Origin: a virus
Taxonomy: Duplodnaviria > Heunggongvirae > Uroviricota > Caudoviricetes
DNA length: 64,000 bases
Virus record (IMG/VR): IMGVR_UViG_3300028275_000480
Location: 1-64,000 of that record
Strand: one strand, 5' to 3'
The translations under genes and the position numbers were made by a program. The stretch's first letter is position 1. Every line of letters starts with the position of its first letter. Below are positions 15,481 through 47,871 of the stretch, piece by piece. Under the pieces are notes generated by a model. The model was not told the DNA's origin. It searched no databases and was given only the letters and a program-made list of their open reading frames with translations.

Positions 15481-15487
15481 ATGCGAT

Positions 15488-16554: not shown

Positions 16555-16606
16555 ACCTGTATCCTTATCTGCACACACACTCTATGTGGATCTTCTGTAA
16601 GGCCCT

Positions 16607-16957
16607 GTGGGCAAAGCTGTGAGCATGCCTCTAGGCCTAGAGTTAAAATTAACAGCAATTTCCTCATTTGATATTTATGGCGCTACCGCTGCCGCTTCGC
16701 GGCTTATAGAATTATGCTCGGCCATTTTGGATAAGTACAGGATGGCGATTCAGATCACAGATCATTGTTATAGATATCATCACTTTCGACATGGGTTAGA
16801 TCCTGAACAGATTTGGCGTGATGTACAAGCGTGGGGTGGCTTTCTCAGTATACAACCTGGGGGCGACATAGACTTTTTTGTGCCTGATCGTAATCGTGTG
16901 TTCTTTGAAATCAAATACCCAGAATTATCTAGAAGTCATAGTCGCAGCTGGGTTTAA
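16607..16957 (+). CDS. hypothetical protein
   Basis: 116-aa ORF; first plus-strand gene after the strand switch. Confidence 0.4.
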   Translation: MGKAVSMPLGLELKLTAISSFDIYGATAAASRLIELCSAILDKYRMAIQITDHCYRYHHFRHGLDPEQIWRDVQAWGGFLSIQPGGDIDFFVPDRNRVFFEIKYPELSRSHSRSWV

Positions 16958-16969
16958 TTAAATACTAGT

Positions 16970-17812: not shown

Positions 17813-17832
17813 GCCCCAGCAGTAAATACTGC

Positions 17833-21502: not shown

Positions 21503-21531
21503 ATTATACGTGAATTATTATTAGTTGTCAA
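21503..21531 (-). promoter_or_regulatory. sigma70 consensus promoter (TTGACA / 17 / TATAAT)
   Basis: perfect hexamers. Confidence 0.55.
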
Positions 21532-22171: not shown

Positions 22172-22791
22172 ACAGCGAATATGTTTGTACCAATAATAAT
22201 TCTATCTTCTGTAGATTGATTGGGCATAGTCTTGTGTCTTAGATATGAAGGAAAGATAACAAGGTCTCCTTCTTCAACAGGCACTTCGTAATCAAACAAC
22301 TGGTGATATGAACTTCTATTGTTAAATGAATATGGTTGATGTTTAAGTATTACTTCATTTGGGTGTTCAAAAACAAGATTGCCCGAATCTTTATTTTTCT
22401 TAAGATAAAAACTTGATGTTAACGGAACTGGACTATGATTGTGCGTATCGATAAATGACCCTGGAGCATATCGATTGGCCCACATCTCAACAATAGCAGG
22501 TTTTCCTGAATAATTTAAATGTTGCCAATATGCATTAACATGTTCTGTTAAAAATTCTAATAACCCTTGTAGTTCGGGCATTGATTGTAAATTGCGTACA
22601 ACATTATAAGAGCATAATCCACCGTTCCTCATTGAACCTTGATTGTCTTTAATTGTTTCAGCAAAGACAGGCTCAAGAAGGGGGATAACATTGTTTTGTA
22701 ATTCAACAATGTTATCTTTATATTTTGTTCTATATATTGAAATAGCAAATATATCTTCAATCATTATCTGTTCGAGCCCTACTATAATCAA
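22168..22791 (-). CDS. 2OG-Fe(II) oxygenase-like protein (TIGR02466-like paralog 3)
   Basis: IDTHNHSPVPLTSSFYL...H motif; ATGA coupling to the methyltransferase. Confidence 0.55.
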   Translation of the reverse strand: MIIVGLEQIMIEDIFAISIYRTKYKDNIVELQNNVIPLLEPVFAETIKDNQGSMRNGGLCSYNVVRNLQSMPELQGLLEFLTEHVNAYWQHLNYSGKPAIVEMWANRYAPGSFIDTHNHSPVPLTSSFYLKKNKDSGNLVFEHPNEVILKHQPYSFNNRSSYHQLFDYEVPVEEGDLVIFPSYLRHKTMPNQSTEDRIIIGTNIFAV

Positions 22792-26732: not shown

Positions 26733-28055
26733 TTAGAGTTTTTCACCTTTTGTAAATCCACGGAACCGGAGGAATCGTGGAAAACGTAGCGACCACGTAT
26801 CTTCGCTATCCTGGCTCCGAGTCGCTGCATCTGCACGGACTTCCACGACCTGCCCAATGAGCGTATCCTTAGCTTCCCAGAATTCTGCTCTTTGTTCGTC
26901 TGTAAAACCCGAACCACAATTGACCACAATCCTTTTACCATCATCTACACCTTCACAAACAATAGCACCTAACTTGCCTACATTACGTCCTGTTCCTTCT
27001 TCTACTGACGTAACTGATAGACTAACTTCAATAAACGGTTTCATCTTAAGCCAAGAGGTACTACGTTTACATTCATATTTGGCATCAGGATCTTTGATCA
27101 TTACGCCTTCATAGCCTGCCTCGACCATTTCTTTCATGTAGTCTTTGAAATCAATTTCGTCTGTGAACACATCAAGATTGAATTCTCGTTGAGGCACAAT
27201 GGTTATAAAACCCGAATCATTAAAGATGTTTTCCCAATTTTTTAGGAAAGCACTACGACGACGTTGACCTAATGTACTCTTGCCTTGTTTGAATTCCACT
27301 AATGGTACAATATCAAACAAATTGAGAACAGCATCAGACGCATTTACATTGTCTTTACGATGAACTTGTTTCATTAAATCTTGAAACGAATTGCTCATAA
27401 TTTCGCCGTCTAATACATATGAACGACCAAACTCGTCAATATAATTTTGCAGATAATCGGTAATGTGTTTAAAGTTTTCAAGGACTTTACCATTACGTGT
27501 ATATTGTGTCACGGTGCGTTGTTCATAATCAATTACCGTTAAACAACGAACACCATCTAACTTACGCTCTACAATTTTCTTACCTGTAAGTTTGCTTTCG
27601 TGATTAGCACTATCGTGGCTAAGCTGGCATTCAAATACTGGCACAGCATATTCTAATTTCTTTTGTTTCTTTGCTACAGAGTTAACGGTCTTTTCGCTAA
27701 CACCACAGCGCAGATCTTTAATAAGAATACGACGATAAAAATCATTCCATTGATCTTTGGTTGCCACATCCATAGCCAATTGGATAGCATCACGTGCGGC
27801 ATGACCGGTGAGCTCACGACGATATAAACTCTCTGCCAGTTGTTTAAAGTTATCCCAACTTAGTCCCTGTCCATCTTTGTCTGATGTAGGGACCTGTTTA
27901 ACACCAAATGTATAAAGATTGTCTAACGCCATTTTTACGCCTTCGAAGAACTCATCTAAGCCTTCGGTCATAGCATCAGCAATAACAGCTTCTTTAGCTA
28001 GACGGCTATTGTCTGCTTCAAGACGCTGAATAATAACTTGTGGTTGTGTTCGCAT
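26733..28055 (-). CDS. ATP-dependent DNA ligase
   Basis: motif I KLDGVRC; C-terminal LRFPRF; 440 aa. Confidence 0.85.
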   Translation of the reverse strand: MRTQPQVIIQRLEADNSRLAKEAVIADAMTEGLDEFFEGVKMALDNLYTFGVKQVPTSDKDGQGLSWDNFKQLAESLYRRELTGHAARDAIQLAMDVATKDQWNDFYRRILIKDLRCGVSEKTVNSVAKKQKKLEYAVPVFECQLSHDSANHESKLTGKKIVERKLDGVRCLTVIDYEQRTVTQYTRNGKVLENFKHITDYLQNYIDEFGRSYVLDGEIMSNSFQDLMKQVHRKDNVNASDAVLNLFDIVPLVEFKQGKSTLGQRRRSAFLKNWENIFNDSGFITIVPQREFNLDVFTDEIDFKDYMKEMVEAGYEGVMIKDPDAKYECKRSTSWLKMKPFIEVSLSVTSVEEGTGRNVGKLGAIVCEGVDDGKRIVVNCGSGFTDEQRAEFWEAKDTLIGQVVEVRADAATRSQDSEDTWSLRFPRFLRFRGFTKGEKL

Positions 28056-28063
28056 ATAAGTCC

Positions 28064-28417
28064 TTAAACAATTACAGGTTTGTGGTTGGGGTGATAGTCC
28101 GAGTAGATTTTGGCATAGTGATTAACACGAATCCAATTAACTAAACTTTGTGGATCAGCAATCATCCAATCTTCTACATCTTTAAATTCTATATCATCTT
28201 CTGTGGTGAACACATAGATTTCATAACAACGTTGCGAATTGAAACGAGCACGAAGAGTCATGTGTCCGATTTGTTGTGCCAACGGATTTGTTCGGAGTTC
28301 GTTGCCTTTGAGCACTTCGATGATTTGGTTTTTTTCCCAAATGTCCGGATGCTTAGAAGTAATGTCTTCTAAACATTCGAATCCTTCGCGATCCCAAGAT
28401 GCTAATATATAACGCAT
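28064..28417 (-). CDS. hypothetical protein
   Basis: start MRYIL 1 nt after the stop of the small upstream ORF. Confidence 0.45.
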   Translation of the reverse strand: MRYILASWDREGFECLEDITSKHPDIWEKNQIIEVLKGNELRTNPLAQQIGHMTLRARFNSQRCYEIYVFTTEDDIEFKDVEDWMIADPQSLVNWIRVNHYAKIYSDYHPNHKPVIV

Positions 28418-28418
28418 T

Positions 28419-28595
28419 TTAAACTTTCTTGTTGATCCAGTTTGGGTCCCACATATCTTCATTTGTGAGGTCTGGGTAATACAATTCAGGCGATACAGGT
28501 AACTTTGTTATTATAACTTCGGGCGGAGGTTCTGTCAACTCATTATAAGCATTGTTGCCCCAAGCCAAAACCCATAACATTAAAAGTGTATCCAT
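28419..28595 (-). CDS. small secreted protein (58 aa, signal peptide)
   Basis: not in the track; GGAGATAT RBS; promoter 28628..28656. Confidence 0.35.
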   Translation of the reverse strand: MDTLLMLWVLAWGNNAYNELTEPPPEVIITKLPVSPELYYPDLTNEDMWDPNWINKKV

Positions 28596-28627
28596 ATATC
28601 TCCCTATACGAAGTTTACTATGTTACT

Positions 28628-28656
28628 AGTATAACACAGGAAAATACAGATGTCAA
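28628..28656 (-). promoter_or_regulatory. sigma70-like promoter (TTGACA / 17 / TATACT)
   Basis: consensus hexamers. Confidence 0.55.
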
Positions 28657-28657
28657 C

Positions 28658-29248
28658 CTAAAATGTTCTATGGAATGTGTGAGGATTTGGGCTAATGTTT
28701 ATACTCATAACGATCCGATCATCGTTTGAGTTGTTTTTTTGAGTTTTATGTAGCATCCAACCTGGGAACATTAATACATCTCCCGTTTGGACTTCAACTT
28801 CTTTCCAAGGAAGCTCAACTCTAAGACTTCCGCTCCAAATATGAAACATTGGATCAAAAATTTCTAAGTTTCCACCGTTGGCAGGTTGTTCAACATATAA
28901 AACGCAGACCAACGGAACACTACCGTGAGTGTGTTCGTCAGTCCATCCGTTAAAAGGATGAAGGTTAACCCAACTAGAGCTTATTGATAAGTCACATTTT
29001 GGAAGTTGCCATTCAGCCCAAACTTTTTCTATCATTGGTCCCGCCCAAACAAGAAAATCGTTTGATTCTTCCCAGTAGTGAGGCGCATCGGGATCGGAGG
29101 AAGAACTTATCCCTCCGTCCCGTTCTACTCTGTTATTAAGTTGTGATCCAGTTTTGAGTTTATGAGAAGCTCGTTTAACCAACTCACTTAGGTCACCAGA
29201 ATAATGGCCTTTCCATACAACCGCTGGAGATAGACTGATCGGAGTCAT
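28658..29248 (-). CDS. 2OG-Fe(II) oxygenase-like protein (TIGR02466-like paralog 4)
   Basis: TDEHTHGSVPLVCVLYV...H motif. Confidence 0.55.
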   Translation of the reverse strand: MTPISLSPAVVWKGHYSGDLSELVKRASHKLKTGSQLNNRVERDGGISSSSDPDAPHYWEESNDFLVWAGPMIEKVWAEWQLPKCDLSISSSWVNLHPFNGWTDEHTHGSVPLVCVLYVEQPANGGNLEIFDPMFHIWSGSLRVELPWKEVEVQTGDVLMFPGWMLHKTQKNNSNDDRIVMSINISPNPHTFHRTF

Positions 29249-29784
29249 TCAACACCCAAATAAGATGCCCAGCTTGGATGATGTAAGTGAAAACCTTTTA
29301 GTTTTCTCTTTTCAACTAGATCCCAAAAGTGGGGTTTGTATGGAGACAATTTTGGTTTCATCTTACCTACATGAGCAGCCTTTTTATAGTTGCAAGGCTT
29401 ACATGCAGTTGTAGAGTTTTCCCAAGTGGTCTTACCTCCTTTTGACACAGGATGTACATGGTCCAAAGTAGCAGTTTGATCTGTTACTTCTGTACCGCAG
29501 TATTGGCAAGTATATTGGTCTCGCAAGAATACATTACGCTTAGATAAGCGCATTGTGTTCTTAGGCTTTTGATATTCCTTGAGCATTAGTACAGCAGGAA
29601 CTTTAGTTTCCCAACGAGCTGAATGAACAATCCAGTCGTCATACCACTCAAGGACTTCGGCCTTGTCCAAAACCATATAGCGAATGGCTTCCTGCCAATC
29701 TACACAAGATAGCGGAAGTAGGCTAATTGGTTGCATGTCTGCATTTAATAGTAGGGTACTCATTTTTTTACTTTTGGTTAACAA
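29245..29784 (-). CDS. HNH endonuclease
   Basis: CQYCG...LDHVHPVSKGG...WEN...CKPCN HNH motif. Confidence 0.75.
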   Translation of the reverse strand: MLTKSKKMSTLLLNADMQPISLLPLSCVDWQEAIRYMVLDKAEVLEWYDDWIVHSARWETKVPAVLMLKEYQKPKNTMRLSKRNVFLRDQYTCQYCGTEVTDQTATLDHVHPVSKGGKTTWENSTTACKPCNYKKAAHVGKMKPKLSPYKPHFWDLVEKRKLKGFHLHHPSWASYLGVE

Positions 29785-29859
29785 AGTGTATTTAACGCCG
29801 AGAATGTATTATATGCTCAGATTACTAAAAAATCAAGTCATTGACAAATAAATTAATAT

Positions 29860-30795
29860 ATGAGCAAATTAATGATCACTGGAGCAAATGGGTTTCTTGG
29901 ACGCAATGCTACCCCATTCTTAAAACAAATGTTTGACGAAACGGTATTGATTGATAAACCTCCGTTCTTATGGGACCAAAGTGTTCGAGAAGGGTGGTCG
30001 CACAATAATCAAATACATTATTGCGATATAACAGAAGATATTCCAGTTTTAAAAGAACATCTTAAAGAAGTTGATGTTGTTGTTCATATGGCCAATCGAT
30101 CTAGGATTGATCCTAGTTGGAATGAGTACGCTGAATACTATAATGTAAACATAACAGCAACACATAAATTTTTTAGTTTATGCCAAACTATGGGTGTAAG
30201 GAAATTTGTTTATATAAGTTCTAGCTCAGTGTATGGAAACAACGGTACAATCAAACAACGAGAAGATAGCCAATTGATGCCAACCAATCCTTATGCTGTG
30301 AGCAAGATGTCTGCAGAATGGGCACTTCACGTGCAGAGTCTTGTTGGGGATACAGAATTAATAATAATAAGACCTTTTACCATGTACGGAGACTTTATGG
30401 ACTTTGGCAAAAACGCATTAGTGATTCCAAAGTTTATTTCTGCCTGGGAAACCAATCAACCGTTGTTGTTACACGGCGGTGGTGATCAACGCAGAGACTT
30501 TGTTCATGTTAGTGATGTTATCAAAGGTCTTATGATTGTTCTAGAGTACGGTGAACACGGAGACGTATTCAATTTAGGATCAGGCCAATCTGTAAGTATC
30601 AAACAATTGGCAGACATTATTAGTCATAGACAAATAGTTGTTCCGCCACGTGTTGGAGCAGTAGCAAATACAGAAGCAGATATTACAAGATTAGCCGAAC
30701 TGGGTTATAAACCAAATGTAAAGGTATTACGATGGTTGACGGACCTAATGGAAGAGCTTAAACTAAAAAATATTTCTAACATTAAGGAAGCATAA
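29860..30795 (+). CDS. NAD-dependent sugar-nucleotide epimerase/dehydratase
   Basis: Rossmann motif ITGANGFLG; YxxxK; 311 aa. Confidence 0.8.
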   Translation: MSKLMITGANGFLGRNATPFLKQMFDETVLIDKPPFLWDQSVREGWSHNNQIHYCDITEDIPVLKEHLKEVDVVVHMANRSRIDPSWNEYAEYYNVNITATHKFFSLCQTMGVRKFVYISSSSVYGNNGTIKQREDSQLMPTNPYAVSKMSAEWALHVQSLVGDTELIIIRPFTMYGDFMDFGKNALVIPKFISAWETNQPLLLHGGGDQRRDFVHVSDVIKGLMIVLEYGEHGDVFNLGSGQSVSIKQLADIISHRQIVVPPRVGAVANTEADITRLAELGYKPNVKVLRWLTDLMEELKLKNISNIKEA

Positions 30796-31383
30796 ATGAG
30801 TTTAGTACCAATGGTAGTTGAGTCTACATCAAAAGGCGAACGTGCATACGATATCTATAGCAGATTACTTAAAGAGCGTATTGTCATGTTAACAGGTGAA
30901 GTTGAAGACCACATGGCAAATATTGTAGTTGCACAACTATTATTTTTAGAAAGCGAAAATCCAGATAAAGAAATTAGTCTGTTTATTAATAGCCCAGGTG
31001 GTGTTGTTACAGCAGGCATGAGCATTTATGACACAATGCAGTTTATTAAATGCCCTGTGGCTACCTACGTTATGGGACAGGCTTGTTCAATGGGAAGTTT
31101 GTTAGCACAAGCAGGAGCAGAAGGTAAACGTTATATGTTGCCAAACGCTCGTCACATGATTCATCAACCCAGCGGCGGCGCCCGTGGTCAAGCTACAGAT
31201 ATTCAAATTCAAGCAGAAGAGATTTTAAAAATGAAAAAGAATCTTACTGAGATTTATGTTAAGCATAATTCAAAAGGTAAGACCTACGAAGAGTTTGCTC
31301 GCGACATGGAACGTGATAAGTTTATGTCAGCGCAAGAAGCTCTTGAATATGGACTCGTTGACAAAATCATCGAGAAACGATAA
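30796..31383 (+). CDS. clpP: ATP-dependent Clp protease proteolytic subunit
   Basis: full-length similarity, catalytic Ser in GQACSMGS and His in HQP. Confidence 0.85.
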
Positions 31384-31784
31384 TGACAAGACAAGAAGGT
31401 AAAGTAGATAAAGGATGGGGTTGCGAAATTATTTGGGCAACCAACGACAAGTACTGCGGTAAGATTATGGTCTTTGAAAAAGCAGGTGCTAAGTTTAGTA
31501 TGCACTTTCATAAAGAAAAAGACGAAACATGGTTTGTAAACGCAGGAAAATTTAAATTGGTTTGGTGCGACACAAAAACAGCAACCTATCACGAAAAATT
31601 CTTAAATGAAGGTGATACTTGGCATAACCCTCCTATGATGCCTCATCAACTTATTGCTCTTGTACCAAACTCAATGATATTTGAAGTTAGTACAGCAGAT
31701 AGTGTAGAGGATAACTATCGAATCATTCCCGGAGACAGCCAAAGTGCAACAACAGAACAACCAGCCACAGAACAACCAGCCTAA
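31383..31784 (+). CDS. cupin-domain protein (possible sugar isomerase/epimerase)
   Basis: conserved His/Glu cupin motifs; C-terminal TEQPA repeat. Confidence 0.5.
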   Translation: MTRQEGKVDKGWGCEIIWATNDKYCGKIMVFEKAGAKFSMHFHKEKDETWFVNAGKFKLVWCDTKTATYHEKFLNEGDTWHNPPMMPHQLIALVPNSMIFEVSTADSVEDNYRIIPGDSQSATTEQPATEQPA

Positions 31785-32367
31785 GATTACCTGGACTGGT
31801 GGCGAGTTTAGAACAAAGTGTGTAATAGGCTTAGATCGTGACGGAGTTATTAATCGCGATCTAGGTACCTATTGTTATCGTGTTGAAGATTTTGATCCAA
31901 TTCCTGGCAGCGTTGATGCAGTTGCTGAACTTAGACGTAAAGGTTATAAGATTGTAATCATTACAGATCAAGGGGGAATTGAAAAGGGTATCTATACACA
32001 AGAACAAGTAGATACATTGCACACACATATGCTAGATTTGTTTGGCAAGGCAGGATGTTCTAGTATCGATGCAATATATTATTCTGCTAGCTCACGTAAA
32101 GATGATCCGTTTGCAAAACCAAATACTGGAATGTTTAAGAGATGTGAAAAAGAAATTCCAGATATTAAATTTAATCAAGGTTATTATGTAGGCGATAAGA
32201 TTAAAGATCTTAAAGCAGCAGTTAAGATGGGTTCAAAACCTGTGTTAGTTAGAACAGGTTATGGCCTTGAAACAGAAAAAGAATTAAACAAATTCACTTA
32301 CAGAGAATTAAAGCGTCGAACTATTATATTTGACGATCTTGCAAGTTTTGTTAACTCGTTACCATGA
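31744..32367 (+). CDS. gmhB: HAD-IIIA phosphatase, D,D-heptose 1,7-bisphosphate phosphatase-like
   Basis: GLDRDGVIN DxD motif; GTG start is uncertain and overlaps the cupin gene's 3' end. Confidence 0.65.
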   Translation: MQQQNNQPQNNQPKITWTGGEFRTKCVIGLDRDGVINRDLGTYCYRVEDFDPIPGSVDAVAELRRKGYKIVIITDQGGIEKGIYTQEQVDTLHTHMLDLFGKAGCSSIDAIYYSASSRKDDPFAKPNTGMFKRCEKEIPDIKFNQGYYVGDKIKDLKAAVKMGSKPVLVRTGYGLETEKELNKFTYRELKRRTIIFDDLASFVNSLP

Positions 32368-32762
32368 AACAAATAATAGTCAATGGAACTTTTGATATAT
32401 TGCATAGAGGACACATAGAATTATTAAACTATGCAAAGTCTGTTGGCGATCGTTTGCTAGTTTGTATTGACAGCGATGCTCGTGTAAATTTTCTTAAAGG
32501 GCCGGGCCGCCCTATTAACGATCAATGGGATCGTATGCTTATGTTACAGAATTTAAAATCTGTAGATGATGTTAAGATTTTCAATACTGAAGAAGAACTT
32601 ATCTCAATAATTAAAAGCATTAGGCCTGTAACTATGGTAAAAGGCAGTGACTACCGCAATAGATCGATTGTGGGAGAAGAATACTGCAATGAAATATTAT
32701 TTTATGAACGAACAAATCACTCAACTTCCAAAACAATACAGGATATTATTGATAGGGGATAA
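32364..32762 (+). CDS. cytidylyltransferase-fold nucleotidyltransferase (RfaE/HldE domain II-like)
   Basis: GTFDILHRGH HxGH motif. Confidence 0.7.
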   Translation: MKQIIVNGTFDILHRGHIELLNYAKSVGDRLLVCIDSDARVNFLKGPGRPINDQWDRMLMLQNLKSVDDVKIFNTEEELISIIKSIRPVTMVKGSDYRNRSIVGEEYCNEILFYERTNHSTSKTIQDIIDRG

Positions 32763-33465
32763 AGGTACAGACATTTACACATACGGAAGTGTGAATAGGA
32801 TTAGTCCTGAAGCTCCAATACCTGTGTTCAATCCACATGGACATACTTACAAAGCGGGTATGGCCGACAACGTTAGAGAAAATTTAGAAGCACTTGGGTG
32901 CAATGTAAATTTCCTCTACGGGGAAACTAGCGAAAAAGAAAGACTTATCGATCGACGCAGTAAACAACAGATAGTTCGAATTGATAGAGATAAGAAAAGT
33001 GATCCTATTAGGTTTGATACTCCTATTCCTAATTTTTATGATGCAATAGTAATCAGCGATTATAACAAAGGAACCATTACCTACGAACTTGTTGAAGAAA
33101 TTAGAAAAGAATACAAAGGACCTATTTTCATTGACACTAAAAAAACAGACCTTGTTAGGTTCGAAGGCTGTTATGTAAAAATAAATGAATTAGAAAAAAG
33201 CAAGGCTATTACATTACCAAACAGCAAATGGTTAATTGTTACTCTTGGCGAAGATGGGGTTCAATATTTGGATAATAAACTAACCCCTAAAAAAGTTCCA
33301 TTGGTTGATGTAACAGGAGCAGGCGATACTTTCTTAGCTGCATTGACCTACAAATTTTTAGAAACAGAAAATATGATGCAAGCATTAGAGTTTGCCAACA
33401 ATGCATCATCAATTACGGTACAGCACGTTGGATGTTATGCACCAACATTAGAGGAAATACTATGA
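32689..33465 (+). CDS. PfkB-family sugar kinase (RfaE/HldE domain I-like heptose kinase)
   Basis: ILLIGDKGTD...SPEAPIPV; GAGDTF motif; start uncertain (32647 to 32704). Confidence 0.7.
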   Translation: MKYYFMNEQITQLPKQYRILLIGDKGTDIYTYGSVNRISPEAPIPVFNPHGHTYKAGMADNVRENLEALGCNVNFLYGETSEKERLIDRRSKQQIVRIDRDKKSDPIRFDTPIPNFYDAIVISDYNKGTITYELVEEIRKEYKGPIFIDTKKTDLVRFEGCYVKINELEKSKAITLPNSKWLIVTLGEDGVQYLDNKLTPKKVPLVDVTGAGDTFLAALTYKFLETENMMQALEFANNASSITVQHVGCYAPTLEEIL

Positions 33466-34331
33466 TTATACTCACAGGAGCAGCAGGCTTTATTGGAAGT
33501 TATATTTTAGGTTATCTTAATAAACAAGGAATCGAAGATGTTTACCTCTTTGATGATATGCCTTATGGAGATCAATATAAAAATTTAATTGGCAAAAAAT
33601 ATAAAGGACTATACTCTACTAAAGAAATTATAGACAATCTATCTGCGTTCGATTGTGTTATCCATTGCGGAGCAAATGCAAGTACACTAGAAAGAGATTG
33701 GTCTAGCATCTACGAATCCAATATTGTTAGTACAAGAAGATGGCACGACCTTTGTAAGCATTACGGAAAAAAGTTTATATTCATGTCAAGCGCAGCAGTA
33801 TACGGCAACGGAAACGGTCCTGTTAACCACTATGCTTTTAGTAAACTTACCTGCGAACAAGAAATAACTAATGGTGTAATACTTCGATTATTCAACGTCT
33901 ACGGACCAAATGAATATCACAAAGGTCGTATGGCTAGTACGCCCTTTCATTGGTACCGTCAATTAGAAAACAATTTAATTTTAAAAATATTCAACAACTC
34001 AGAAAATTATCTAAGAGATTTTATATATGTCGAAGATGTGGCTAAAACCGTACATCATTTTATTAACAATTATAAAGAAGGTCTCTACGACCTTGGTACT
34101 GGTAATGCTGTAAGTTTTGATCGAGTTGCAGATCTTTGCTTACAAGAGATTGGATATGGCACAAAAATATCTATTGACATGCCAAATGATCTTAAAGAAC
34201 AATATCAAGAATACACCTGTGCATCAGTCCAGTTTTTAGAGGATGCTGGTGTTGATGTTAAAGGATTCTTTAATATAGATCAAGGTATTAAAGAATATTT
34301 TAATTACTTAAAGACTAATCAAATTTATTAA
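33462..34331 (+). CDS. hldD: ADP-L-glycero-D-manno-heptose-6-epimerase-like NAD-dependent epimerase
   Basis: [13 protein letters not shown] and YAFSK motifs; ATGA overlap with the kinase. Confidence 0.7.
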
Positions 34332-35517
34332 ACACCGCAGTAAGAGCAATGACTAAATCTTCAATCATTCCGTCGTCGTGATATGGAGTGGGTGCAAATC
34401 GTAATCTTTCAGTACCTACATCAACCGTAGGATAGTTAATTGGTTGAACATAGATGTTGTGATCATTTAACAGCATATCGCTCATTGCTTTACACTTCTT
34501 AGCATCTCCAACAAGCACAGGAATAATATGAGTGGTGGAACATTCCATAACAGGAATTCCTGCTTTCTTTAATCTATGTCTTAATTTACGAGCACGTTCT
34601 TGATGTTTCTCTCGAACTTCGTTATGCTCTTTTAAGTATTTGATTGCAGCCAACGCACCGGCACAGGTAACAGGGCTCATAGACGTAGTAAAAATGAACC
34701 CTGCAGCCACTGATCGGATAGCATCAATTACATCTGCATCGGCAGCAATATATCCACCTTGGACACCATACGCTTTACCAAGCGTTCCGTTAACTATGTC
34801 AACTCGGTCCTGGAACCCTAACTCTTCTAATTTACCAGCGCCGCGCTCACCGTATAGCCCTACCGCATGTACTTCGTCAATGTAAGTGATAGCATTGTAT
34901 TTGTCTGCTAGATTACAAATTCCTCTTATGTCTCCAACATCACCATCCATAGAATATACACTTTCAAAAACAATACAAGGAGTATGGCCAGCAAGTGTAG
35001 CAGCAACTAATTTGCTTTCTAAATCTTCTAGGTTATTGTGTTCAAATATTTGTTTAGGAGCTCGACTATGACTCATTCCTATAATTAAACTATTGTGATT
35101 TTTACTATCGCTGATAAAATGAATATTAGGCACAATCTTGCTTAGAGCAATAAGAGTCCATTCGTTGGCCACATATGCAGAGCTGAATAATAAACTGCTC
35201 TGTTTATTATGCAGAGTGGCAAGCTCGTGTTCTAAGGCTTTATGATAGTGACTAGACCCGCCAATATTGCGAGTGCCTCCTGAACCAGATCCTGTGTGAT
35301 CTAGAGCGGTGTGCATAGCATCTAGCACAACTTTATGCTGGCCCATGCCCAAATAATCGTTTGAACACCAGTTTACTATGTTCTTAATGTTATAAGGCCC
35401 GTACCAAATAGCTGTAGGAAATTTTCCAGCTTCTCTAACAATATCATTAAAAACACGATATTTTCCTGATGCTTTAAGATCCTGCAATAGTTTTTTAAAA
35501 GGTTCTTTGTTTATCAT
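34315..35517 (-). CDS. 5-aminolevulinate synthase-like class-II aminotransferase (ALAS/AONS family)
   Basis: [11 protein letters not shown] and [10 protein letters not shown] motifs typical of ALAS; 400 aa; 17-nt convergent overlap with hldD. Confidence 0.75.
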
Positions 35518-35559
35518 AGTATGCTATTTAACACTAAATATTAGATCGGAGATTATAAA

Positions 35560-35793
35560 ATGGATATAGTGCAATTAGATGTGCCGTTGTTTATACGTTT
35601 GCTAGAGCTTGCTCGGGAAGAAGTTAAGCAAGATGCAGATCTACATGATATAGCAGAAGCAGTTATTAAATTATCACAAGACGGTCCAGTTACAATGGCA
35701 GACTATGACAAAATTGTAGCTTTTATGAACAAACAGGGCGATCCTGCTAAAGAAGAAATTAATCGCATTAGGCAATTGGGCGGTGTACAATGA
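35560..35793 (+). CDS. hypothetical protein
   Basis: 77-aa ORF. Confidence 0.5.
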   Translation: MDIVQLDVPLFIRLLELAREEVKQDADLHDIAEAVIKLSQDGPVTMADYDKIVAFMNKQGDPAKEEINRIRQLGGVQ

Positions 35794-36092
35794 AAATTAC
35801 AGAATTAATAAGAGGCATGCTAGATATCATAGATGGTGTTGATCAACAACAAAACGACCCAGATCCTTCTGGATACAAAGATACAGATATAAAAAGATTT
35901 AAACAAATTGTAGACCTAGCAGATCAAGGTCAGCCAACCGAATATTCAAATACTCCGAAAGAAGAATATGCCAGCATTGACTCTGTGACCGTAGATGCTG
36001 GTGCTGATAGTTTAAACGGAACTAAACATCCTGCAGATATTAGAAGTGATAGTGTTGCAATGTATCCAGGAACGGTCTATGGAGCAAAATAA
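35790..36092 (+). CDS. hypothetical protein (paralog of 37727..37972 at the N-terminus)
   Basis: shared ELIRGMLDIIDGVD / EFMRALADIIDKLD motif. Confidence 0.5.
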   Translation: MKITELIRGMLDIIDGVDQQQNDPDPSGYKDTDIKRFKQIVDLADQGQPTEYSNTPKEEYASIDSVTVDAGADSLNGTKHPADIRSDSVAMYPGTVYGAK

Positions 36093-36364
36093 TGTCAGCC
36101 AACGGTATTTCAGATAGATTATTACATACTAAAGAACAATCACAGCTTCTTAAATTACAAATTGCTGAAGCAAAACGTCAAGGCAAAGTAGTTGCGACTG
36201 ATGGAACAATAACTGGTTCTCTTGATAGTTCTAAACCATATTATAGACCAAACAATGTTTTAGACACAACATTATTGCCAGACACATATAACGGCAATGT
36301 TCCGGGCGCAGACGATAATCCTAACACTGGCGGCTTAGTTGCCGGTCGTCCGTGGAAAACCTAA
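36092..36364 (+). CDS. hypothetical protein
   Basis: 90-aa ORF. Confidence 0.5.
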   Translation: MSANGISDRLLHTKEQSQLLKLQIAEAKRQGKVVATDGTITGSLDSSKPYYRPNNVLDTTLLPDTYNGNVPGADDNPNTGGLVAGRPWKT

Positions 36365-36373
36365 AGATTTAAT

Positions 36374-37717
36374 ATGGCTCTTTTCCCTTCAGAACAACCT
36401 GAAAATACTTCGGCGTATATTCATCCAAGAGATCCTCATCTTCATAGAATTGAAAACTCTATGGAGTACAATGCCTTAGGACAACCTGTGCTTCGTACTA
36501 CTCTTAAAGTAGGACAGACAGATGCTTTTGGACGCATACGTATGAGTACACCTTTTACTCTAGGTGACTACAAACACTTATACGGATTAGATCCTAACTT
36601 TATCGACTATACATTAAATGGTGGCACCGTAGATTTTCAATCAAATAAAGCCTGTGCTAGATTGACCACAAGTAATAACTCTAGTAGTCGTGTTGTTCAT
36701 CAGACTAAGTTCTATCATCACTATATGCCAGGCAAGAGCCAGCAGATACTTTCAAGTTTTAACTTCTATGCTGCCACAGCCAATGTTACAAAGCGCACAG
36801 GATACTTTGATGATAACAATGGTATATTTTTTGAACAAGCAGGTGATGGTACTCTGAGTTGGGTTATAAGAACTTATACATCTGGTGCTCCTGTAGAGAA
36901 TCGTGTCACACAGGCCGACTGGAACATTGACAAATGTGATGGCACAGGCGGAAGTACATTTGATATAGATGTTACCAAAACACAACTATCCTTTATAGAG
37001 TTTCAATGGTTAGGTGTGGGTGCTGTCACCGTAGGTTTTGTACACAACGGTGCTTACATACCCTGCCACATATTCTACCACTCAAACAACTTGACCACGG
37101 TCTACATAAGCACACCAAACTTGCCTGTACGCTGTGAGATTGTAAACACAGGCACTACTACAGGTGCTTACTTTGATCAGATCTGCTCTACCGTAGTGTC
37201 AGAAGGCGGCTACGTAGAAGCAGGACAGGATTGGTCAGTGATTAGCCCTAGCCTAAGAACCATAGCCTCTGGTGCAACATTGACCATAATGGCCATAAGA
37301 TTAAAAACAACATTCAAAACCTATGCCAACCGTATGATAGTTCGTTCTGGAAACCTAAATGTATTCAGCGATGGCGATAGTATCAAATGGCGTTTGATCA
37401 AACTGCCTAATCAGGCCGCATTGACTGGATCTACCTGGGTAGATGTTGACACTGATAGTGGTGTACAATATAACGCTACCTGCACAGCATTCACAGGTGG
37501 CGATGAAATGGACAACGGCTTTGTTGGTGCTAGTACACAAGGTAGTCAAAAAGCCGGCGGTGCCCCAGCAAGTAACCTTCCCAGCGAAGCCAAAAAGAAT
37601 TATATTGTACAAAACTATGACAGCACTGACAGCGAGATCTACGTTGTAGTAGCAACTAACATAGGCTCACAGAGCACAAACGTCGGCGTTGGCTGGCAGT
37701 GGCGCGAAATATACTAA
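36374..37717 (+). CDS. putative virion structural protein
   Basis: 447-aa ORF, beta-rich composition, located in the structural block. Confidence 0.55.
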   Translation: MALFPSEQPENTSAYIHPRDPHLHRIENSMEYNALGQPVLRTTLKVGQTDAFGRIRMSTPFTLGDYKHLYGLDPNFIDYTLNGGTVDFQSNKACARLTTSNNSSSRVVHQTKFYHHYMPGKSQQILSSFNFYAATANVTKRTGYFDDNNGIFFEQAGDGTLSWVIRTYTSGAPVENRVTQADWNIDKCDGTGGSTFDIDVTKTQLSFIEFQWLGVGAVTVGFVHNGAYIPCHIFYHSNNLTTVYISTPNLPVRCEIVNTGTTTGAYFDQICSTVVSEGGYVEAGQDWSVISPSLRTIASGATLTIMAIRLKTTFKTYANRMIVRSGNLNVFSDGDSIKWRLIKLPNQAALTGSTWVDVDTDSGVQYNATCTAFTGGDEMDNGFVGASTQGSQKAGGAPASNLPSEAKKNYIVQNYDSTDSEIYVVVATNIGSQSTNVGVGWQWREIY

Positions 37718-37726
37718 ATATACACT

Positions 37727-37972
37727 ATGAGAGCAGCAGAATTTATGAGGGCGTTAGCCGATATTATTGACAAATTAGACGGCGAGTCCGAGAACAATCT
37801 GCCAGCTAAAGATCCAAGTAAAGCAGATCCAAATCCAATAATGGTTCCTCCGTTACAACAGCATCTAGAACTAGACAAAGCAGAAGCCGGAAAAGATAGT
37901 CCAATTATCAAAAAGCTCACGCAAGATGAAGTCGAGCATAATCCGCAAAATCCCATTTTTCGTAGAAATTAA
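37727..37972 (+). CDS. hypothetical protein
   Basis: 81-aa ORF; paralogous N-terminus to 35790..36092. Confidence 0.45.
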   Translation: MRAAEFMRALADIIDKLDGESENNLPAKDPSKADPNPIMVPPLQQHLELDKAEAGKDSPIIKKLTQDEVEHNPQNPIFRRN

Positions 37973-37999
37973 TAAAAAAACATACCGATAAATATTGGT

Positions 38000-40900
38000 A
38001 TGACTATTCAAAAGATTAAATCTGGGCGTATACCTGGCCAAGACGTAGAATTTTACGTTGGTGCTCACGGACAACTATTTTACGACGAAGATACGGGTAT
38101 TTTACGTATTTCCGATGGAGTAACACCAGGGGGAACCGTTGTCAGCGGAGGAACAGGCGGGGGAACTTATACATTACCCACAGCAACAACTACCGTAAAA
38201 GGTGGTGTTAAAATTGACGGCACCACTATTAACATTGCTAATCAAGTTATCAGTGTGGGTACCGTTCCATATGCTAGTATTTCAAATGCACCCACAGCAG
38301 TCTCAGCATTTACTAACGATAGCGGATACATTACTTCAAGCGCCTTATCTAGTTATGCTACACAAACTTATGTAACTACTCGTGGATACATTACATCGGC
38401 AGGCATTCCTAGCGTAGTTAGTTCCTTTACTAACGATAGCGGATATGTAACTTCTAGTAGCTTTGATCTAGATACCATTGACTTTGATACTAACAATAAA
38501 CTGCATGCCACAGGAGTATTACCAGGTGATGCTGAAGGTTTCACTGCTATATTTGCAGGCCGCGCCGCAGGTGTAGCTGCACTACCTAACACCGTTATCC
38601 AAAGTCAAGCGCAGGTTAACGACTACGCACAGAACAACTTTCAAAATACTAACGATGGCAATCACGCAAGTACAGAATGGGTAGCAACAAGTCCAAACGG
38701 TAGCGACACAGACTACTATATTGATTTAGGTATTAACGGAGCAAGTTGGGACGGCACAGCAGAGAATAGTTTATATGATAATGTAGGACAGCGTGATGGA
38801 TGGTTGTATGTGCAAGGAGGTAATGCTGGCGGTGGTAACTTAGTACTTGGCACAAGTATTGCCAATACCTATACTAAGATTATTGCAGGTGATGCATCAG
38901 CAGGCAATAAGGAAGTTGTTCGCTTTAGTGAAACAGAAGTTAAACTATCTAAACAACTAACATTCAGTGACAACACAACACAGACTACAGCTTGGACTGG
39001 GTCTGTTAGTTGGAGCGATGTTACCAGCAAGCCTACAATATTAACAACTTTAAATAGTTTAGATGATGTGACTACCGTGGGAGCCACAGACGGTCAAGTC
39101 TTAAAATATAATGCCAGCCTTAGCATATGGCAACCAGCAGCTGACCTAGTAGGCAGTGGTGGTAGTGGTATTGGACTCACTGACTTATCAGCATCGAATG
39201 CTTCAGCCAGCGGTGGAGGAAGTTTAAGTTACAACAATACTTCGGGGGTGTTTACATTTACACCGCCTAACCTAACATCTTATGTAACTAATAGCTCGCT
39301 GTCGTCTACGCTATTGACCTATGCTACACAGACTTATGTTACTAGCCAAGGATATATTACTAGCTCGGGTAATGCCGCAACAGCAACTAAATTAGGAACT
39401 GCTCGTGCTATCAACGGAATAAATTTTGATGGTTCTGCTGCTATTACTATCACCGCAGTAAATCCTAATGCACTAACTATTGGCACAGGACTCAGCGGAA
39501 CAAGTTATGATGGTAGCACAGCAGTTACCGTAGCAGTTGATAATACTATAGCACGTAGAGCAGATACTACCTATGTTGGTACAACCAGTATTGCCCTAAA
39601 CAGATCAAGTGCTAGCCAAACACTAACAGGTGTAAGTATTGACGGCAATGCCGATACGGTGACCAACGGTGTTTATACCACAGGCACATACGCAAATCCA
39701 GCGTGGATAACAAGTCTAGCCTACAGCAAGTTAACTGGGACCCCTACAATCTTTAGTGGTAGTTATACAGACTTAACTAATAAGCCAACTATACCTACAA
39801 ATGTAAGCCAATTAGCCAACGACAGCGGATACATTACCGCCGCAGCAATACCGGCACAATTTACATTTAATGTAGCAGCCGATGATAGTTCATTAAAAAC
39901 TATTAGTAGTCAAGAAACAATTAAGTTTATAGGAGCTAATAATATTACAACATCCAGTGATGCTGAAGGCAATATCACCATCACTGGCCCAACACTAACA
40001 GGTTATGCAACTAAGACAGGTGCTGAAACTTTAACTAGTAAAAACATTAGTGGCTCAAGTAATACTATTACCAACATTGCCAACTCGAGTTTGTCTAATA
40101 GCTCTGTTACCATTGGTACTACATCAATATCATTAGGCAGTTCGTCAACTACACTTGGCGGAATGGCATGGATTACATTTGCTGGTAGCACTAGCGGCAC
40201 AACACAATTAAGGCCTAGTGCAATAGCTGGTACAACAACCGTTACAATGCCAGGAACAACTGGCACACTGATTACTACAGGCGATACCGGCACGGTTACA
40301 AATGCTATGTTAGCAGGCAGTATTGCCACAAGCAAGATTACTGGGTTAGCTACGAGTGCTACCACAGATACAACAAATGCTTCTAATATTACCAGCGGAA
40401 CATTACCTAATGCACGACTAAGTTCCGTTCCAAATAGCGCATTAGCAAACAGCAGTATCTCTGTCAATGGCACAAGCATTTCTTTAGGTGGAAGCGGCAC
40501 TATTACCGTTAATAGTATTTCAGCAAGTGGTTTTACTGGCGTATTAGGATTTGATGCTTCCGGCAGTTTAATACTAAGCAATACAAATAAGTTTAGAAGT
40601 CCGTCTGGATTGATCATTGAAACCGGAACATCCCCATTAAAAGATTGGACATTTGGAACTACTGGTAGTTTAACATTTCCAGATAATACCACACAGAGCA
40701 CCGCTTATACCGGCAATGCCGATACCGTAACCAATGGTGTTTATACCACCGACACCGGCACGGTCACAAACACAATGCTGGCAGGATCTATTGCCAATTC
40801 TAAGTTGGCAAATAGTTCAGTAACGATTAATGGCACAAGTATCGCACTAGGTGCAAGTGCTACTATTACAGCGGCCGCGGGCACACTAACCGGCACAACA

Positions 40901-42154
40901 TTAAATTCAACCGTAGTAACTTCAAGTTTAACCAGTGTTGGCACACTAACAAGTTTAACAACTAGTGGAACTATTACTAGTAGTAAAACGGGAACCGCAA
41001 CACACGGAACAGGTGCACAACTTTATATTAACGGTTCTACTTATAGTAGAATAGACTTTAACAATGTCTATGGGGCTCCTACCGTAACTGATAGATCTAC
41101 AGGAACCAGAATATTATTCAATCCAGATATAGCAGTGAATAAAATGGATTGTGCTATCGGTATGTCAACTGATACCTTATGGTCCTCTGTTCAAGGCCCT
41201 AACTTCAACTTTGGTTGGTATGCTGGCGACGGATTAGGCTTTGCTGGTTCCAACGCCCCAGTTACACTTCTTACCTTATCGGGTGCTGGTGTCTTAACGA
41301 TTCCAGGAACAACAAGTGTAACTAATAACTCTGCTACTAATAAGACTCTCAATATTGGCACACACGGACAACTTTTTGACGACGGCAACCTTCATATTCA
41401 TACCAGCAGTGGAACATTATGGATCAATAGTTTAGATAGTAGTGATATTAGTATTGGAACTCAATATAACAGCGGATCTGGATCAAGTGTAAACATCGGT
41501 AAGAATCTAGTGGCCAACAGCGGTAGTGTAACAGCTAATGCTACCACAGCGTTCATTGCTGGAGATAATGCTGTCAGTGGCGTTGCACTACAAATGCCTA
41601 ACGAAGGCGCTCTTCGTAACTTGAAGAATGGTAGTACCAATATGTACTTTGACGTTAGCATTGGTGGATCAACTCAAGGATCATTCCAGTTCCGTTCGAG
41701 CAGTTCGTATACCAATGTGCTGACAATGAGCAGCACGGGTGTTACATTTAACACTGACGCAACCTTTACATCGAGAACACCGTCAGTATCAAGAACGGCA
41801 TACAACGCAGCCATAGATACTGAGATTACCTTGGATAATATGCGTTTCCGCATCAGCAATCAAGGGGGTATATTCCCACAGGTTATTGGCAACGGTTCGT
41901 CAAGAAATCTTGCTTGGACTGGTGTGGGTGCTATCAATGGTGCAGCCGTTGCTCAAGCAGGTAGCACTGGCACAATCGTATCTACTTCTGCCTGGACTAC
42001 ATTGTATAATCTACACGGTATGGATGCCGCTGGTGATACCGTTACCGTTACACTACAGGATAAGGCGGCAGGTCGTATCTATCGCATTACATTCATGCGT
42101 AGTGACAACGGTAGCACAACAGGCTACAACATCATTGGCGAGAGAATATTATAA
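38000..42154 (+). CDS. tail fibre protein (large, repeat-containing)
   Basis: 1384 aa, Thr/Ser/Gly-rich with repeated TNDSGYITS and NADTVTNGVYTT segments. Confidence 0.8.
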   Translation: MTIQKIKSGRIPGQDVEFYVGAHGQLFYDEDTGILRISDGVTPGGTVVSGGTGGGTYTLPTATTTVKGGVKIDGTTINIANQVISVGTVPYASISNAPTAVSAFTNDSGYITSSALSSYATQTYVTTRGYITSAGIPSVVSSFTNDSGYVTSSSFDLDTIDFDTNNKLHATGVLPGDAEGFTAIFAGRAAGVAALPNTVIQSQAQVNDYAQNNFQNTNDGNHASTEWVATSPNGSDTDYYIDLGINGASWDGTAENSLYDNVGQRDGWLYVQGGNAGGGNLVLGTSIANTYTKIIAGDASAGNKEVVRFSETEVKLSKQLTFSDNTTQTTAWTGSVSWSDVTSKPTILTTLNSLDDVTTVGATDGQVLKYNASLSIWQPAADLVGSGGSGIGLTDLSASNASASGGGSLSYNNTSGVFTFTPPNLTSYVTNSSLSSTLLTYATQTYVTSQGYITSSGNAATATKLGTARAINGINFDGSAAITITAVNPNALTIGTGLSGTSYDGSTAVTVAVDNTIARRADTTYVGTTSIALNRSSASQTLTGVSIDGNADTVTNGVYTTGTYANPAWITSLAYSKLTGTPTIFSGSYTDLTNKPTIPTNVSQLANDSGYITAAAIPAQFTFNVAADDSSLKTISSQETIKFIGANNITTSSDAEGNITITGPTLTGYATKTGAETLTSKNISGSSNTITNIANSSLSNSSVTIGTTSISLGSSSTTLGGMAWITFAGSTSGTTQLRPSAIAGTTTVTMPGTTGTLITTGDTGTVTNAMLAGSIATSKITGLATSATTDTTNASNITSGTLPNARLSSVPNSALANSSISVNGTSISLGGSGTITVNSISASGFTGVLGFDASGSLILSNTNKFRSPSGLIIETGTSPLKDWTFGTTGSLTFPDNTTQSTAYTGNADTVTNGVYTTDTGTVTNTMLAGSIANSKLANSSVTINGTSIALGASATITAAAGTLTGTTLNSTVVTSSLTSVGTLTSLTTSGTITSSKTGTATHGTGAQLYINGSTYSRIDFNNVYGAPTVTDRSTGTRILFNPDIAVNKMDCAIGMSTDTLWSSVQGPNFNFGWYAGDGLGFAGSNAPVTLLTLSGAGVLTIPGTTSVTNNSATNKTLNIGTHGQLFDDGNLHIHTSSGTLWINSLDSSDISIGTQYNSGSGSSVNIGKNLVANSGSVTANATTAFIAGDNAVSGVALQMPNEGALRNLKNGSTNMYFDVSIGGSTQGSFQFRSSSSYTNVLTMSSTGVTFNTDATFTSRTPSVSRTAYNAAIDTEITLDNMRFRISNQGGIFPQVIGNGSSRNLAWTGVGAINGAAVAQAGSTGTIVSTSAWTTLYNLHGMDAAGDTVTVTLQDKAAGRIYRITFMRSDNGSTTGYNIIGERIL

Positions 42155-43787: not shown

Positions 43788-43799
43788 AATAAATATAGT

Positions 43800-45886: not shown

Positions 45887-46549
45887 GTGAGCTTTTATAA
45901 AGACCGTGGCATGAAGATAGCGTTATTTGTGCATCAACCTAAATGTTCAATAGAGTCTGGGAACGGTATTCTCGAAGCACTTCAACCATATCATAAATTT
46001 AAATTATTCACTAAATGGGATCTTGACGATAACTTTTTTGATGATGTTGATATGATTGCTATTCCAGGAGGTTTTGGAGATAGCGAAAGTTGGCATTATC
46101 TAATGCGTAATCATACGACCCGTATAAAAAAGTTTATTCAAGACGGTGGAAAATATCTAGGAATATGTATGGGAGCATATTGGGCAGGCAAACACTATTT
46201 TGATATTTTAGATAATGTTGACGCTGTTCAATATATCACTCGTCCAAACACCGACACCCGTAGACCACATGCAAAAGCAATTAATATTAATTGGTTAGGA
46301 CAACAAGAACGCATGTATTTCTATGATGGATGCGCATTGATCGGTGATAATAAAAAATTTCAAACAATAGCAACATACGCCAATGGAGATCCTATGGCTA
46401 TTATTCAAAATAATATAGGATTAATAGGTTGCCACCCTGAAAGTCAACTTAATTGGTATACAGAACATTATAGTTGGATGAAACCGCATTATCATCAAGG
46501 AAAACACTATAAATTGCTGTTAGATTTTGTTGATCAGTTAGATACCTAA
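45887..46549 (+). CDS. class-I glutamine amidotransferase-like domain protein
   Basis: GICMG nucleophile-elbow motif. Confidence 0.5.
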   Translation: MSFYKDRGMKIALFVHQPKCSIESGNGILEALQPYHKFKLFTKWDLDDNFFDDVDMIAIPGGFGDSESWHYLMRNHTTRIKKFIQDGGKYLGICMGAYWAGKHYFDILDNVDAVQYITRPNTDTRRPHAKAININWLGQQERMYFYDGCALIGDNKKFQTIATYANGDPMAIIQNNIGLIGCHPESQLNWYTEHYSWMKPHYHQGKHYKLLLDFVDQLDT

Positions 46550-46596
46550 AAGGTCTTAATGGGCCATAAATACTGGATCACAGAAGGAGGATCCAA

Positions 46597-47871
46597 ATGG
46601 ACCAACGTACACAGAGACAGCAAGAACTACAACAAGATTGGGCCACAAACCCAAGATGGAACGGTATTAAACGACCTTACACAGCAGAGGATGTAGTACG
46701 CCTACAAGGCAGCAAAATACATCCGAGCCAGTTCGCTGTTGAACAAGCAAACAAATTATTTAAACTTCTTCACACAGAAGATTATATTAATACACTTGGT
46801 GCCTTAACAGGTATGCAAGCATTACAACAAGTTAAAGCAGGATTAAAAGCAATTTATCTATCAGGATGGCAGGTAGCAGGCGATGCTAATTTAGCAGGAG
46901 AAATGTACCCTGATCAAAGTTTGTATCCAGCTAACTCGGTCCCGTCAGTAGTTCGTAAGATTAATAATACATTTCGAAGAGCAGACCAGATTGCTTGGAG
47001 CGAAGGCAAAGAACAAGATTTTTATGCTCCAATAATTGCCGATGCCGAAGCTGGGTTTGGCGGAGTGTTAAATGCATTTGAATTAATGAAAGCTATGATC
47101 GAAGCCGGTGCAGCCGGTGTACATTTTGAAGATCAGTTAGCCTCAGTAAAAAAATGCGGACATATGGGAGGAAAAGTACTTGTACCAACAAGAGAAGCTA
47201 TTAACAAATTGGTTGCTGCTCGTCTTGCTGCTGATGTCATGGGCGTGCCTACTTTGGTTATTGCCCGTACTGATGCCGAAGCAGGCGATCTTATCACTAG
47301 TGATGTTGATGATAATGATCGTCCTTTCCTTACTGGCGAAAGAACCGTTGAAGGATTTTATCGTACAAAGAACGGATTTGAACAAGCAGTCTCAAGAGCC
47401 GTTGCCTACGCACCCTACGCCGATCTTGTATGGTGTGAAACAGGGAAACCTGATCTTGATTTCGCAAGAAGATTTGCAGAAGAAGTACACAAACACCATC
47501 CAGGTAAAATGTTAGCCTACAACTGCTCGCCATCATTTAACTGGAAGAAGAACCTAGACGATGCAACCATTGCAAAGTTTCAACGCGAATTAGGTGCGAT
47601 GGGTTATAAGTTTCAATTTATTACTCTTGCCGGATTCCATAATTTAAACAACGGTATGTTTGAATTAGCACATGGATATGCCCGAGAAGGAATGACCGCT
47701 TTTGTAAAAATGCAAGAGCAAGAATTTGCAAATCAGGCATTAGGGTTTGAGGCAGTAAAACATCAAAGAGAAGTAGGAACAGGATATTTTGATCGTGTTA
47801 CTACAACCATCGAAGCAGATGCTTCTACTCAAGCACTAGTTGGTAGCACAGAGGAAGAACAATTTCATTAA
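46597..47871 (+). CDS. aceA: isocitrate lyase
   Basis: KKCGHMGGK signature; close full-length similarity to E. coli AceA from memory. Confidence 0.9.

Follow-up and report, generated by a model that had tools for sequence, protein, structure and literature searches.

A 5-aminolevulinate synthase gene of the viral valaS lineage, conserved in position and under purifying selection, in a T4-like freshwater phage

The sequence analysed here is a stretch of 64,000 bp (referred to as the window) that comprises positions 1 to 64,000 of the IMG/VR record IMGVR_UViG_3300028275_000480, a virus of the class Caudoviricetes. On its minus strand the window contains valaS, a gene of 400 codons for a 5-aminolevulinate synthase (ALAS). 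Taking all lines of evidence together, it is very likely that this gene encodes a working ALAS, dependent on pyridoxal phosphate (PLP), which belongs to the viral valaS lineage and is predicted to be free of haem feedback, and that the gene is old, has been inherited vertically within a lineage of large T4-like freshwater phages and is probably expressed late from a nearly leaderless mRNA. Wegner et al. 2024 (PMC11480375) described viral alaS genes (valaS) on contigs of marine and freshwater phages, and an earlier study (Chen et al. 2020) had listed ALAS for large freshwater phages. Publications already cover the gene class, this clade itself and the activity shown for a homologue; the finding is correct without being new.

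The protein was compared with curated family models and with solved structures. It passed the NCBIfam model TIGR01821 (5-aminolevulinate synthase), whose cut-off is 338.55, with a score of 571.6 bits (E = 8e-172). None of the models for the related enzymes was passed: the KBL model gave 314 against a cut-off of 460, the BioF model 304 against 426, and three serine palmitoyltransferase (SPT)-type models gave at most 230 bits against cut-offs of at least 500 (for one of them, 230 against 640). Among the solved structures the top five matches were all ALAS, with 356-437 bits, whereas KBL structures reached at most 217 bits and AONS/SPT structures at most 184 bits. The best matches in the PDB were 7x98 and 2bwn, with E values of about 1e-130 (6e-130 for one solved ALAS).

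A preliminary description of the window, made from the letters alone, had pointed to a phage-borne ALAS on the basis of an open reading frame (ORF) with the motif CSNDYLGM, a glycine-rich loop and the PLP-lysine region. All three were located, at residues 51-58, at residues 78-87 and at residues 244-251 (GTLGKAYG, with K248 as the PLP lysine), respectively, and the model score and the surrounding phage genes agree with that identification. The alternative offered in the same description, an enzyme of the SPT/AONS family, is rejected, as the SPT and BioF models scored under their cut-offs. The comparison of active-site residues and the phylogeny with ALAS, KBL and AONS references which it had proposed both came out on the side of ALAS, as set out below.

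For the comparison of the active site, the numbering of the Rhodobacter capsulatus enzyme (Rc) was mapped onto an alignment that included 27 freshwater-clade sequences and a KBL-like outgroup. The functional residues were those described for the 2BWN structure. In the window protein R21, N54, T83, N85, H142, K156, S189, D214, H217, T245, K248, T278, T365 and R374 (Rc numbering) were all kept, and the checked residues were almost invariant across the 27 freshwater-clade sequences. In the numbering of the window protein itself, the Schiff-base lysine K248 and the PLP contacts H141, S189, D214, H217, T245 and T278 were invariant in these 27 sequences; the glycine-binding residues (N53 and R373) and the succinyl-CoA-binding residues (R21, T82, N84 and K155) were all present. 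Judged from this alignment, the active site is intact and the catalytic lysine is in place.

For the tree, neighbour joining was applied to Kimura distances among 50 sequences (393 columns), and 200 bootstraps were evaluated by bipartition counting; it contained no SPT sequences, and SPT is excluded by the family models and the ranking of the structures. The split between ALAS and the KBL/BioF-like outgroup was found in 100% of the 200 bootstraps. Because the family models, the ranking of the structures, the ALAS-specific residues and the tree agree, the protein is assigned by family to the true 5-aminolevulinate synthases and not to KBL, AONS or SPT. One of these other alpha-oxoamine synthases resembling ALAS would have the fold and the PLP lysine region in common with the window protein, for which the sole domain reported by Pfam is the generic Aminotran_1_2 (class I/II aminotransferases). 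The KBL-like outgroup also keeps N54, H142, D214, H217 and R374, and a tblastn search of GenBank phages with the window protein returned only KBL or BioF-like genes with 27-35% identity, some of which were mislabelled bacterial records. However, at Rc positions 83, 85 and 365 the residues of the outgroup are V, F and V, and the compared KBL/BioF-like sequences are without the R21 segment, while the window protein has R21, T83, N85 and T365; with the scores and the bootstrap separation given above, this explanation is extremely improbable. At the nucleotide level, a megablast search of GenBank phages with bases 28000-42000 gave no match.

Two further positions concern regulation. The haem-feedback histidine of the R. 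capsulatus enzyme (H342) is replaced by K341 in the window protein, and no cysteine occurs in its last 16 residues. The haem-feedback mechanism is therefore probably absent from this ALAS. Many published vAlaS proteins are likewise without the corresponding residues His342 and Cys400 (PMC11480375).

Several published vAlaS sequences were rebuilt from Supplementary Data 5 of PMC11480375. In the tree, viral ALAS sequences formed a clade apart from bacterial ALAS with 99.5% bootstrap, matching the separate clustering of vAlaS reported there. Within this clade a freshwater sub-clade, consisting of the window protein, the IMG/VR sequences and three GROS21 sequences, was found with 90% bootstrap. 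The window protein was 81%, 81% and 77% identical over the full length to the vAlaS of GROS21-1 UViG_0060, _0011 and _0116, respectively, 68% to that of UViG_0130, approximately 60% to marine vAlaS, 56% to CB_2 vAlaS and 54-56% to the enzymes of R. capsulatus and Caulobacter. By tree position and identity, the window ALAS is a further member of the already published viral clade.

The three GROS21-1 proteins, from phages of the lake Grosse Fuchskuhle, share the N-terminus MINKEPF with the window protein and, as in the window protein, have a Lys or Arg at the position of the haem-feedback His. The CB_2 vAlaS from Crystal Bog (Chen et al. 2020) belongs to the same viral clade and has the same catalytic residues, but differs in having a Cys at the K156 position. 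Proof that it is active came from complementation and from an assay in lysate, for which a K250A mutant was the control (PMC11480375); the CB_2 phage has a genome of 527 kb and a predicted Methylocystis host. The R. capsulatus ALAS (HemA, PDB 2BWN; 54% identity, E = 1e-128) shares the checked PLP, glycine and succinyl-CoA contacts, but is a cellular enzyme with His342 where the window protein has Lys341. The Caulobacter-type haem-regulated ALAS (56% identity) has the same catalytic core and a feedback site formed by His340 and Cys398 (cited in PMC11480375), whereas the window protein has Lys and no C-terminal Cys.

One sequence of nominally bacterial origin, from the bin Rhodobacteraceae_Water-Bin34, was placed inside the viral ALAS clade beside the freshwater phage sequences and was 65% identical to the window protein. 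It probably represents a phage contig that was binned with a bacterium; the same point on mis-binning has been made for a 'Marinovum' record (PMC11480375).

The genes around valaS are those of a phage. A virion structural protein of 447 aa matches phrog_1645 (E = 2e-111), has 53% identity to a protein of cyanophage S-RIM32 and matches 176 records, mostly from T4-like cyanophages. The window also encodes a tail-spike-like protein, a class Ia ribonucleotide reductase (RNR) pair and an ATP-dependent DNA ligase. It is part of a T4-like freshwater phage.

At least 98 IMG/VR contigs contain a copy of ALAS, and the 80 copies that were kept for comparison are 76-88% identical to the window protein. 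With this number, the listing in 2020 and the characterisation in 2024, calling the gene unusual phage cargo, as the preliminary description did, was an overstatement. In a large protein collection the best 120 matches were all at least 82% identical and were found on contigs of up to 375 kb. The close homologue on the 375-kb contig is situated amid small ORFs without assigned function, HNH genes and a phage lysozyme gene. The exact window protein was recorded on 38 contigs, one of them at least 130 kb long, and the six places shown for it, in freshwater samples from JGI and ENA, had identical neighbours.

In more than 30 long IMG/VR loci valaS was found at the same place, always antisense to its neighbours. 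One flank consists of a structural block (orf77, orf100, orf90 and the gene of the 447-aa virion protein). The other flank varies in content: it has ClpP and a cupin, in some loci also the four heptose genes, and then an HNH gene and the ligase. Pairwise dN/dS values of valaS were 0.04-0.10, with synonymous sites near saturation; the gene is under strong purifying selection. Its GC content (39.2%) is close to that of the phage DNA (38.6% in bases 20001-64000). Because of the conserved position, the low dN/dS and the match in GC content, valaS is to be regarded as an old, selected and vertically inherited phage gene and not as a recent capture. The N-terminus MINKEPF is kept in dozens of relatives, so that the start codon of valaS is supported as well.

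Bases 1-18000 of the window have a GC content of 47%, which drops to the value given above for bases 20001-64000. The gene for a MoxR-like ATPase from the high-GC block and valaS were, however, found together on the IMG/VR contigs 3300014720_000065, 3300032226_000446 and 3300032312_000844, two of which also carry an isocitrate lyase gene. Because the high-GC block and valaS are contiguous on three independent contigs, the window is not a chimera. Among the GTDB species genomes the best ALAS matches found were 52-56% identical (Thalassospiraceae, Asticcacaulis, Blastomonas and Pelagibacteraceae), a range which is a lower bound for the top identity, since the genomes were scanned by exact short peptide patterns. 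That valaS would be bacterial DNA brought in through an error of assembly or binning, or would have been captured from a host very recently, might be suspected from its antisense orientation to both neighbours and from the GC step, but its presence at this junction in over 30 viral contigs of independent assembly, the identical neighbours of the exact protein, the three contiguous contigs, the low identity of the cellular matches found, the phage-like GC content of the gene and the separate viral clade leave this explanation hardly any probability.

The start of valaS (ATG at 35517) is separated by 42 nt from the ATG of the divergent gene orf77 (35560). This gap contains a palindrome, each half of which is a TAAATA box in front of one of the two genes (Table 1). 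In the related loci 59 distinct upstream sequences were compared. TAAATA starts 10-14 nt before the ALAS ATG in 55 of these, and both halves of the palindrome are kept, with a gap of 1-6 nt, in 53; a Shine-Dalgarno (SD)-like 4-mer is present in only one, and the flanks vary. Among the 15 A4T2 hexamers TAAATA has the lowest count in the window (36 copies), yet it is found within 60 nt upstream of 18 of the 77 genes in sense orientation versus only 4 in antisense orientation.

The boxes fall into two classes. In the first class the box lies 10-13 nt from the ATG and there is no SD; it comprises valaS, the gene for a 1384-aa fibre-like protein and the genes starting at 37727, 43800, 16970, 17833, 19038 and 29245. 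In the second class the box lies 25-37 nt upstream and several of the genes have an SD. This class includes orf77 (SD GGAGA), isocitrate lyase (SD GGAGG), RNR, the tail-spike-like gene and others. Examples of TAAATA boxes are found at 37989-37994, 43790-43795, 46567-46572 and 57567-57572. The late promoter of T4 is TATAAATA, and its transcript starts approximately 6 nt downstream. The arrangement upstream of valaS suggests that the palindrome represents two back-to-back late-type promoters, one for valaS and one for orf77. Because a T4-late-like TAAATA is located close to the ATG and an SD is lacking, valaS is probably transcribed late, into an mRNA with almost no leader, and the boxes of the first class look like the promoters of a set of leaderless late mRNAs. 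Native expression of valaS is not addressed in PMC11480375.

Other explanations for the upstream region were considered as well. A sigma-70 promoter for valaS was dropped, as none of this type turned up on the minus strand upstream of the gene when the consensus was scanned for. By eye, the half-sites of the palindrome match neither the alphaproteobacterial Irr iron-control element (TTTAGAA-N3-TTCTAAA) nor a Fur box, and both were rejected. That TAAATA would be a stop codon with an AT-rich spacer, or a translation signal, is disfavoured by the class with the box 25-37 nt upstream and an SD, and by the avoidance of the hexamer elsewhere. Terminator-like sites occurred at chance level.

A different type of promoter was seen elsewhere in the window. 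Between 2400 and 13100, near-consensus TTGACA-N17-TATAAT sequences are present on the minus strand upstream of at least 8 genes (starts 2760, 4146, 5758, 8083, 10051, 12111, 12588 and 12999). The GC content of this block is 46-49%, versus 38.6% over bases 20001-64000. The minus-strand block from 2.4 to 13 kb is probably an early region.

Several points weigh against parts of the explanation given at the outset. The nearest homologue that has been assayed (CB_2) is only 56% identical to the window protein, and the loss of haem feedback is read from only two positions. The peptide-pattern scan of GTDB could miss a cellular ALAS of 60-75% identity. The late-promoter reading is founded on motif enrichment and conservation, the late sigma factor gp55 was not identified in the window, and a box 7 nt from the ATG would demand an almost leaderless mRNA, which for this host is no more than a prediction. 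As to its role, the enzyme may be a supplement to the ALAS of the host or may bypass the C5 pathway; both are possible.

In the infected cell, the phage ALAS would condense glycine and succinyl-CoA, yielding 5-aminolevulinate, which is the committed precursor of tetrapyrroles such as haem. With the haem-feedback His and Cys missing, it would be expected to supply the pathway regardless of control by the host. The gene would be transcribed late from its TAAATA promoter, alongside the virion genes. It is confirmed here that the one enzyme by which carbon is committed to the precursors of haem, chlorophyll and B12 can be encoded by a phage. The value of the finding is mainly confirmatory: the window provides one more intact valaS, whose position is fixed and on which purifying selection is strong. 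In a widespread lineage of large freshwater phages valaS is stably kept under selection. Two leads are new, both of them modest: the conserved twin TAAATA palindrome and the recurrent linkage with isocitrate lyase.

With regard to the benefit for the phage, Wegner et al. proposed that a phage ALAS replaces the two-step C5 route in a host outside the Alphaproteobacteria, freeing glutamyl-tRNA for protein synthesis (PMC11480375). One valaS phage has been predicted to infect a gammaproteobacterial methanotroph (PMC11480375), and the predicted early promoters of the window are of the generic TTGACA-N17-TATAAT type, pointing to no host group. On the other hand the closest cellular ALAS sequences are alphaproteobacterial, which speaks to the origin of the gene and not to the present host. 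Replacement of the C5 route in this phage is possible, though on the whole unlikely.

Slightly less probable still is that a working ALAS would feed a haem-to-bilin branch of the phage itself, with hemO and pcyA or pcyX elsewhere in the genome, and not the respiration of the host. The genome from which the 64 kb of the window are taken is probably far longer. The GROS21-1 relatives with 77-81% identical vAlaS have genomes of 320-375 kb with approximately 40% GC, in which hemO and a bilin reductase gene are reported at places that do not adjoin valaS (PMC11480375); in marine phages a cassette of the three genes is present (PMC11480375). No haem oxygenase or bilin reductase was found by Pfam among the ORFs of 180-290 aa in the window, and by this search valaS stands alone within these 64 kb, without hemO or pcyA. 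Many published contigs likewise carry valaS alone, and the role of the phage bilin genes is itself not established (PMC11480375).

Returning to the supply of tetrapyrrole precursors by valaS, the window contains a gene for isocitrate lyase at a distance of 11 kb. The products of isocitrate lyase, succinate and glyoxylate, are each one step from the ALAS substrates succinyl-CoA and glycine. Relatives of this gene occur on at least 113 IMG/VR contigs, and on several contigs it is found approximately 4-10 kb from valaS or elsewhere on the same contig. It is conceivable, but rather improbable, that the two genes form a late-expressed pair for substrate supply, in which host enzymes would make succinyl-CoA and glycine from the lyase products and the tricarboxylic acid cycle would be redirected into tetrapyrroles, with valaS translated from a leaderless mRNA. 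Isocitrate lyase has been reported in 98 huge phages; its linkage with valaS is not mentioned in PMC11480375.

Table 1. Location of valaS, its upstream elements and other features in the window
Feature	Position	Strand	Details
valaS, phage 5-aminolevulinate synthase (ALAS)	34315..35517	minus	ATG ORF, 400 aa, PLP lysine K248
HldD-like gene	33432..34331	plus	TAA stop at 34329-34331; converges with valaS
Tail-to-tail overlap of valaS and HldD-like gene	34315..34331	both	17 nt
Putative TAAATA box of valaS	35525..35530	minus	starts 13 nt before ATG; box 7 nt from ATG; no SD after it
Palindrome TATTTA-N4-TAAATA	35525..35540	both	only such match in the window
Putative TAAATA box on the orf77 side	35535-35540	plus	followed by GGAGA, ATG at 35560
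Isocitrate lyase gene	46597-47871	plus	PF00463, E = 6e-106; KKCGH at residues 185-189; own TAAATA box and GGAGG SD
tRNA-Met(CAT) and tRNA-Arg(TCT)	14519-14677	minus	adjacent

The gene that converges on valaS had been called hldD in the preliminary description. The 17-nt overlap noted there was found as described, but the name was not sustained: the best NCBIfam match of the ORF is TIGR02197 (ADP-glyceromanno-heptose 6-epimerase), with 233 bits against a cut-off of 274.6. Because this score is under the curated cut-off, the neighbour is HldD-like and not a proven HldD. It is the last gene of a run on the plus strand (31383-34331) that resembles an ADP-heptose pathway and consists of a WbuC-like cupin, a GmhB-like phosphatase, a separate HldE-like adenylyltransferase and kinase, and the HldD-like epimerase. 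The best matches of the genes in this run were all under the curated cut-offs, and GmhA was not seen among them. The four heptose genes are variable among the relatives; where they are absent, the cupin and ClpP directly adjoin valaS. The ClpP gene (30796-31383, plus strand) is full-length (NF001368, 326.6 bits, cut-off 249) and is located next to valaS in 46 of the 80 related loci. Its product looks like a cellular-type ClpP and not like a prohead protease.

The 1384-aa fibre-like protein is encoded on the plus strand at 38000-42154, is rich in Ser, Thr and Gly, and occurs in near-identical contigs. It had no PHROG match, and no counterpart covering half of its length was found in any of the 80 related IMG/VR loci. 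The protein probably binds the receptor and evolves fast.

On the minus strand of the high-GC block, the gene for the MoxR-like AAA ATPase and a gene for a DUF2201 metallopeptidase/VWA-like protein are located side by side (6875-8083 and 8241-9326). The PHROGs label of the DUF2201 protein, 'HNH endonuclease', is at odds with its Pfam domains. The MoxR-like ATPase had more than 598 matches in IMG/VR and a weak match to a PHROG annotated 'porphyrin biosynthesis' (CobS-like).

Furthermore, the window contains host-like metabolic genes on the plus strand, for an Fe/Mn superoxide dismutase (59937-60494), a protein of the fatty-acid desaturase family (48456-49160) and a class I glutamine amidotransferase-like protein (45887-46549). 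Four genes of the 2-oxoglutarate-Fe(II) oxygenase family are present, two on the plus strand (17833-18444 and 18363-19022) and two on the minus strand (22168-22791 and 28658-29248), and an S-adenosylmethionine-dependent methyltransferase is encoded at 21521-22171.

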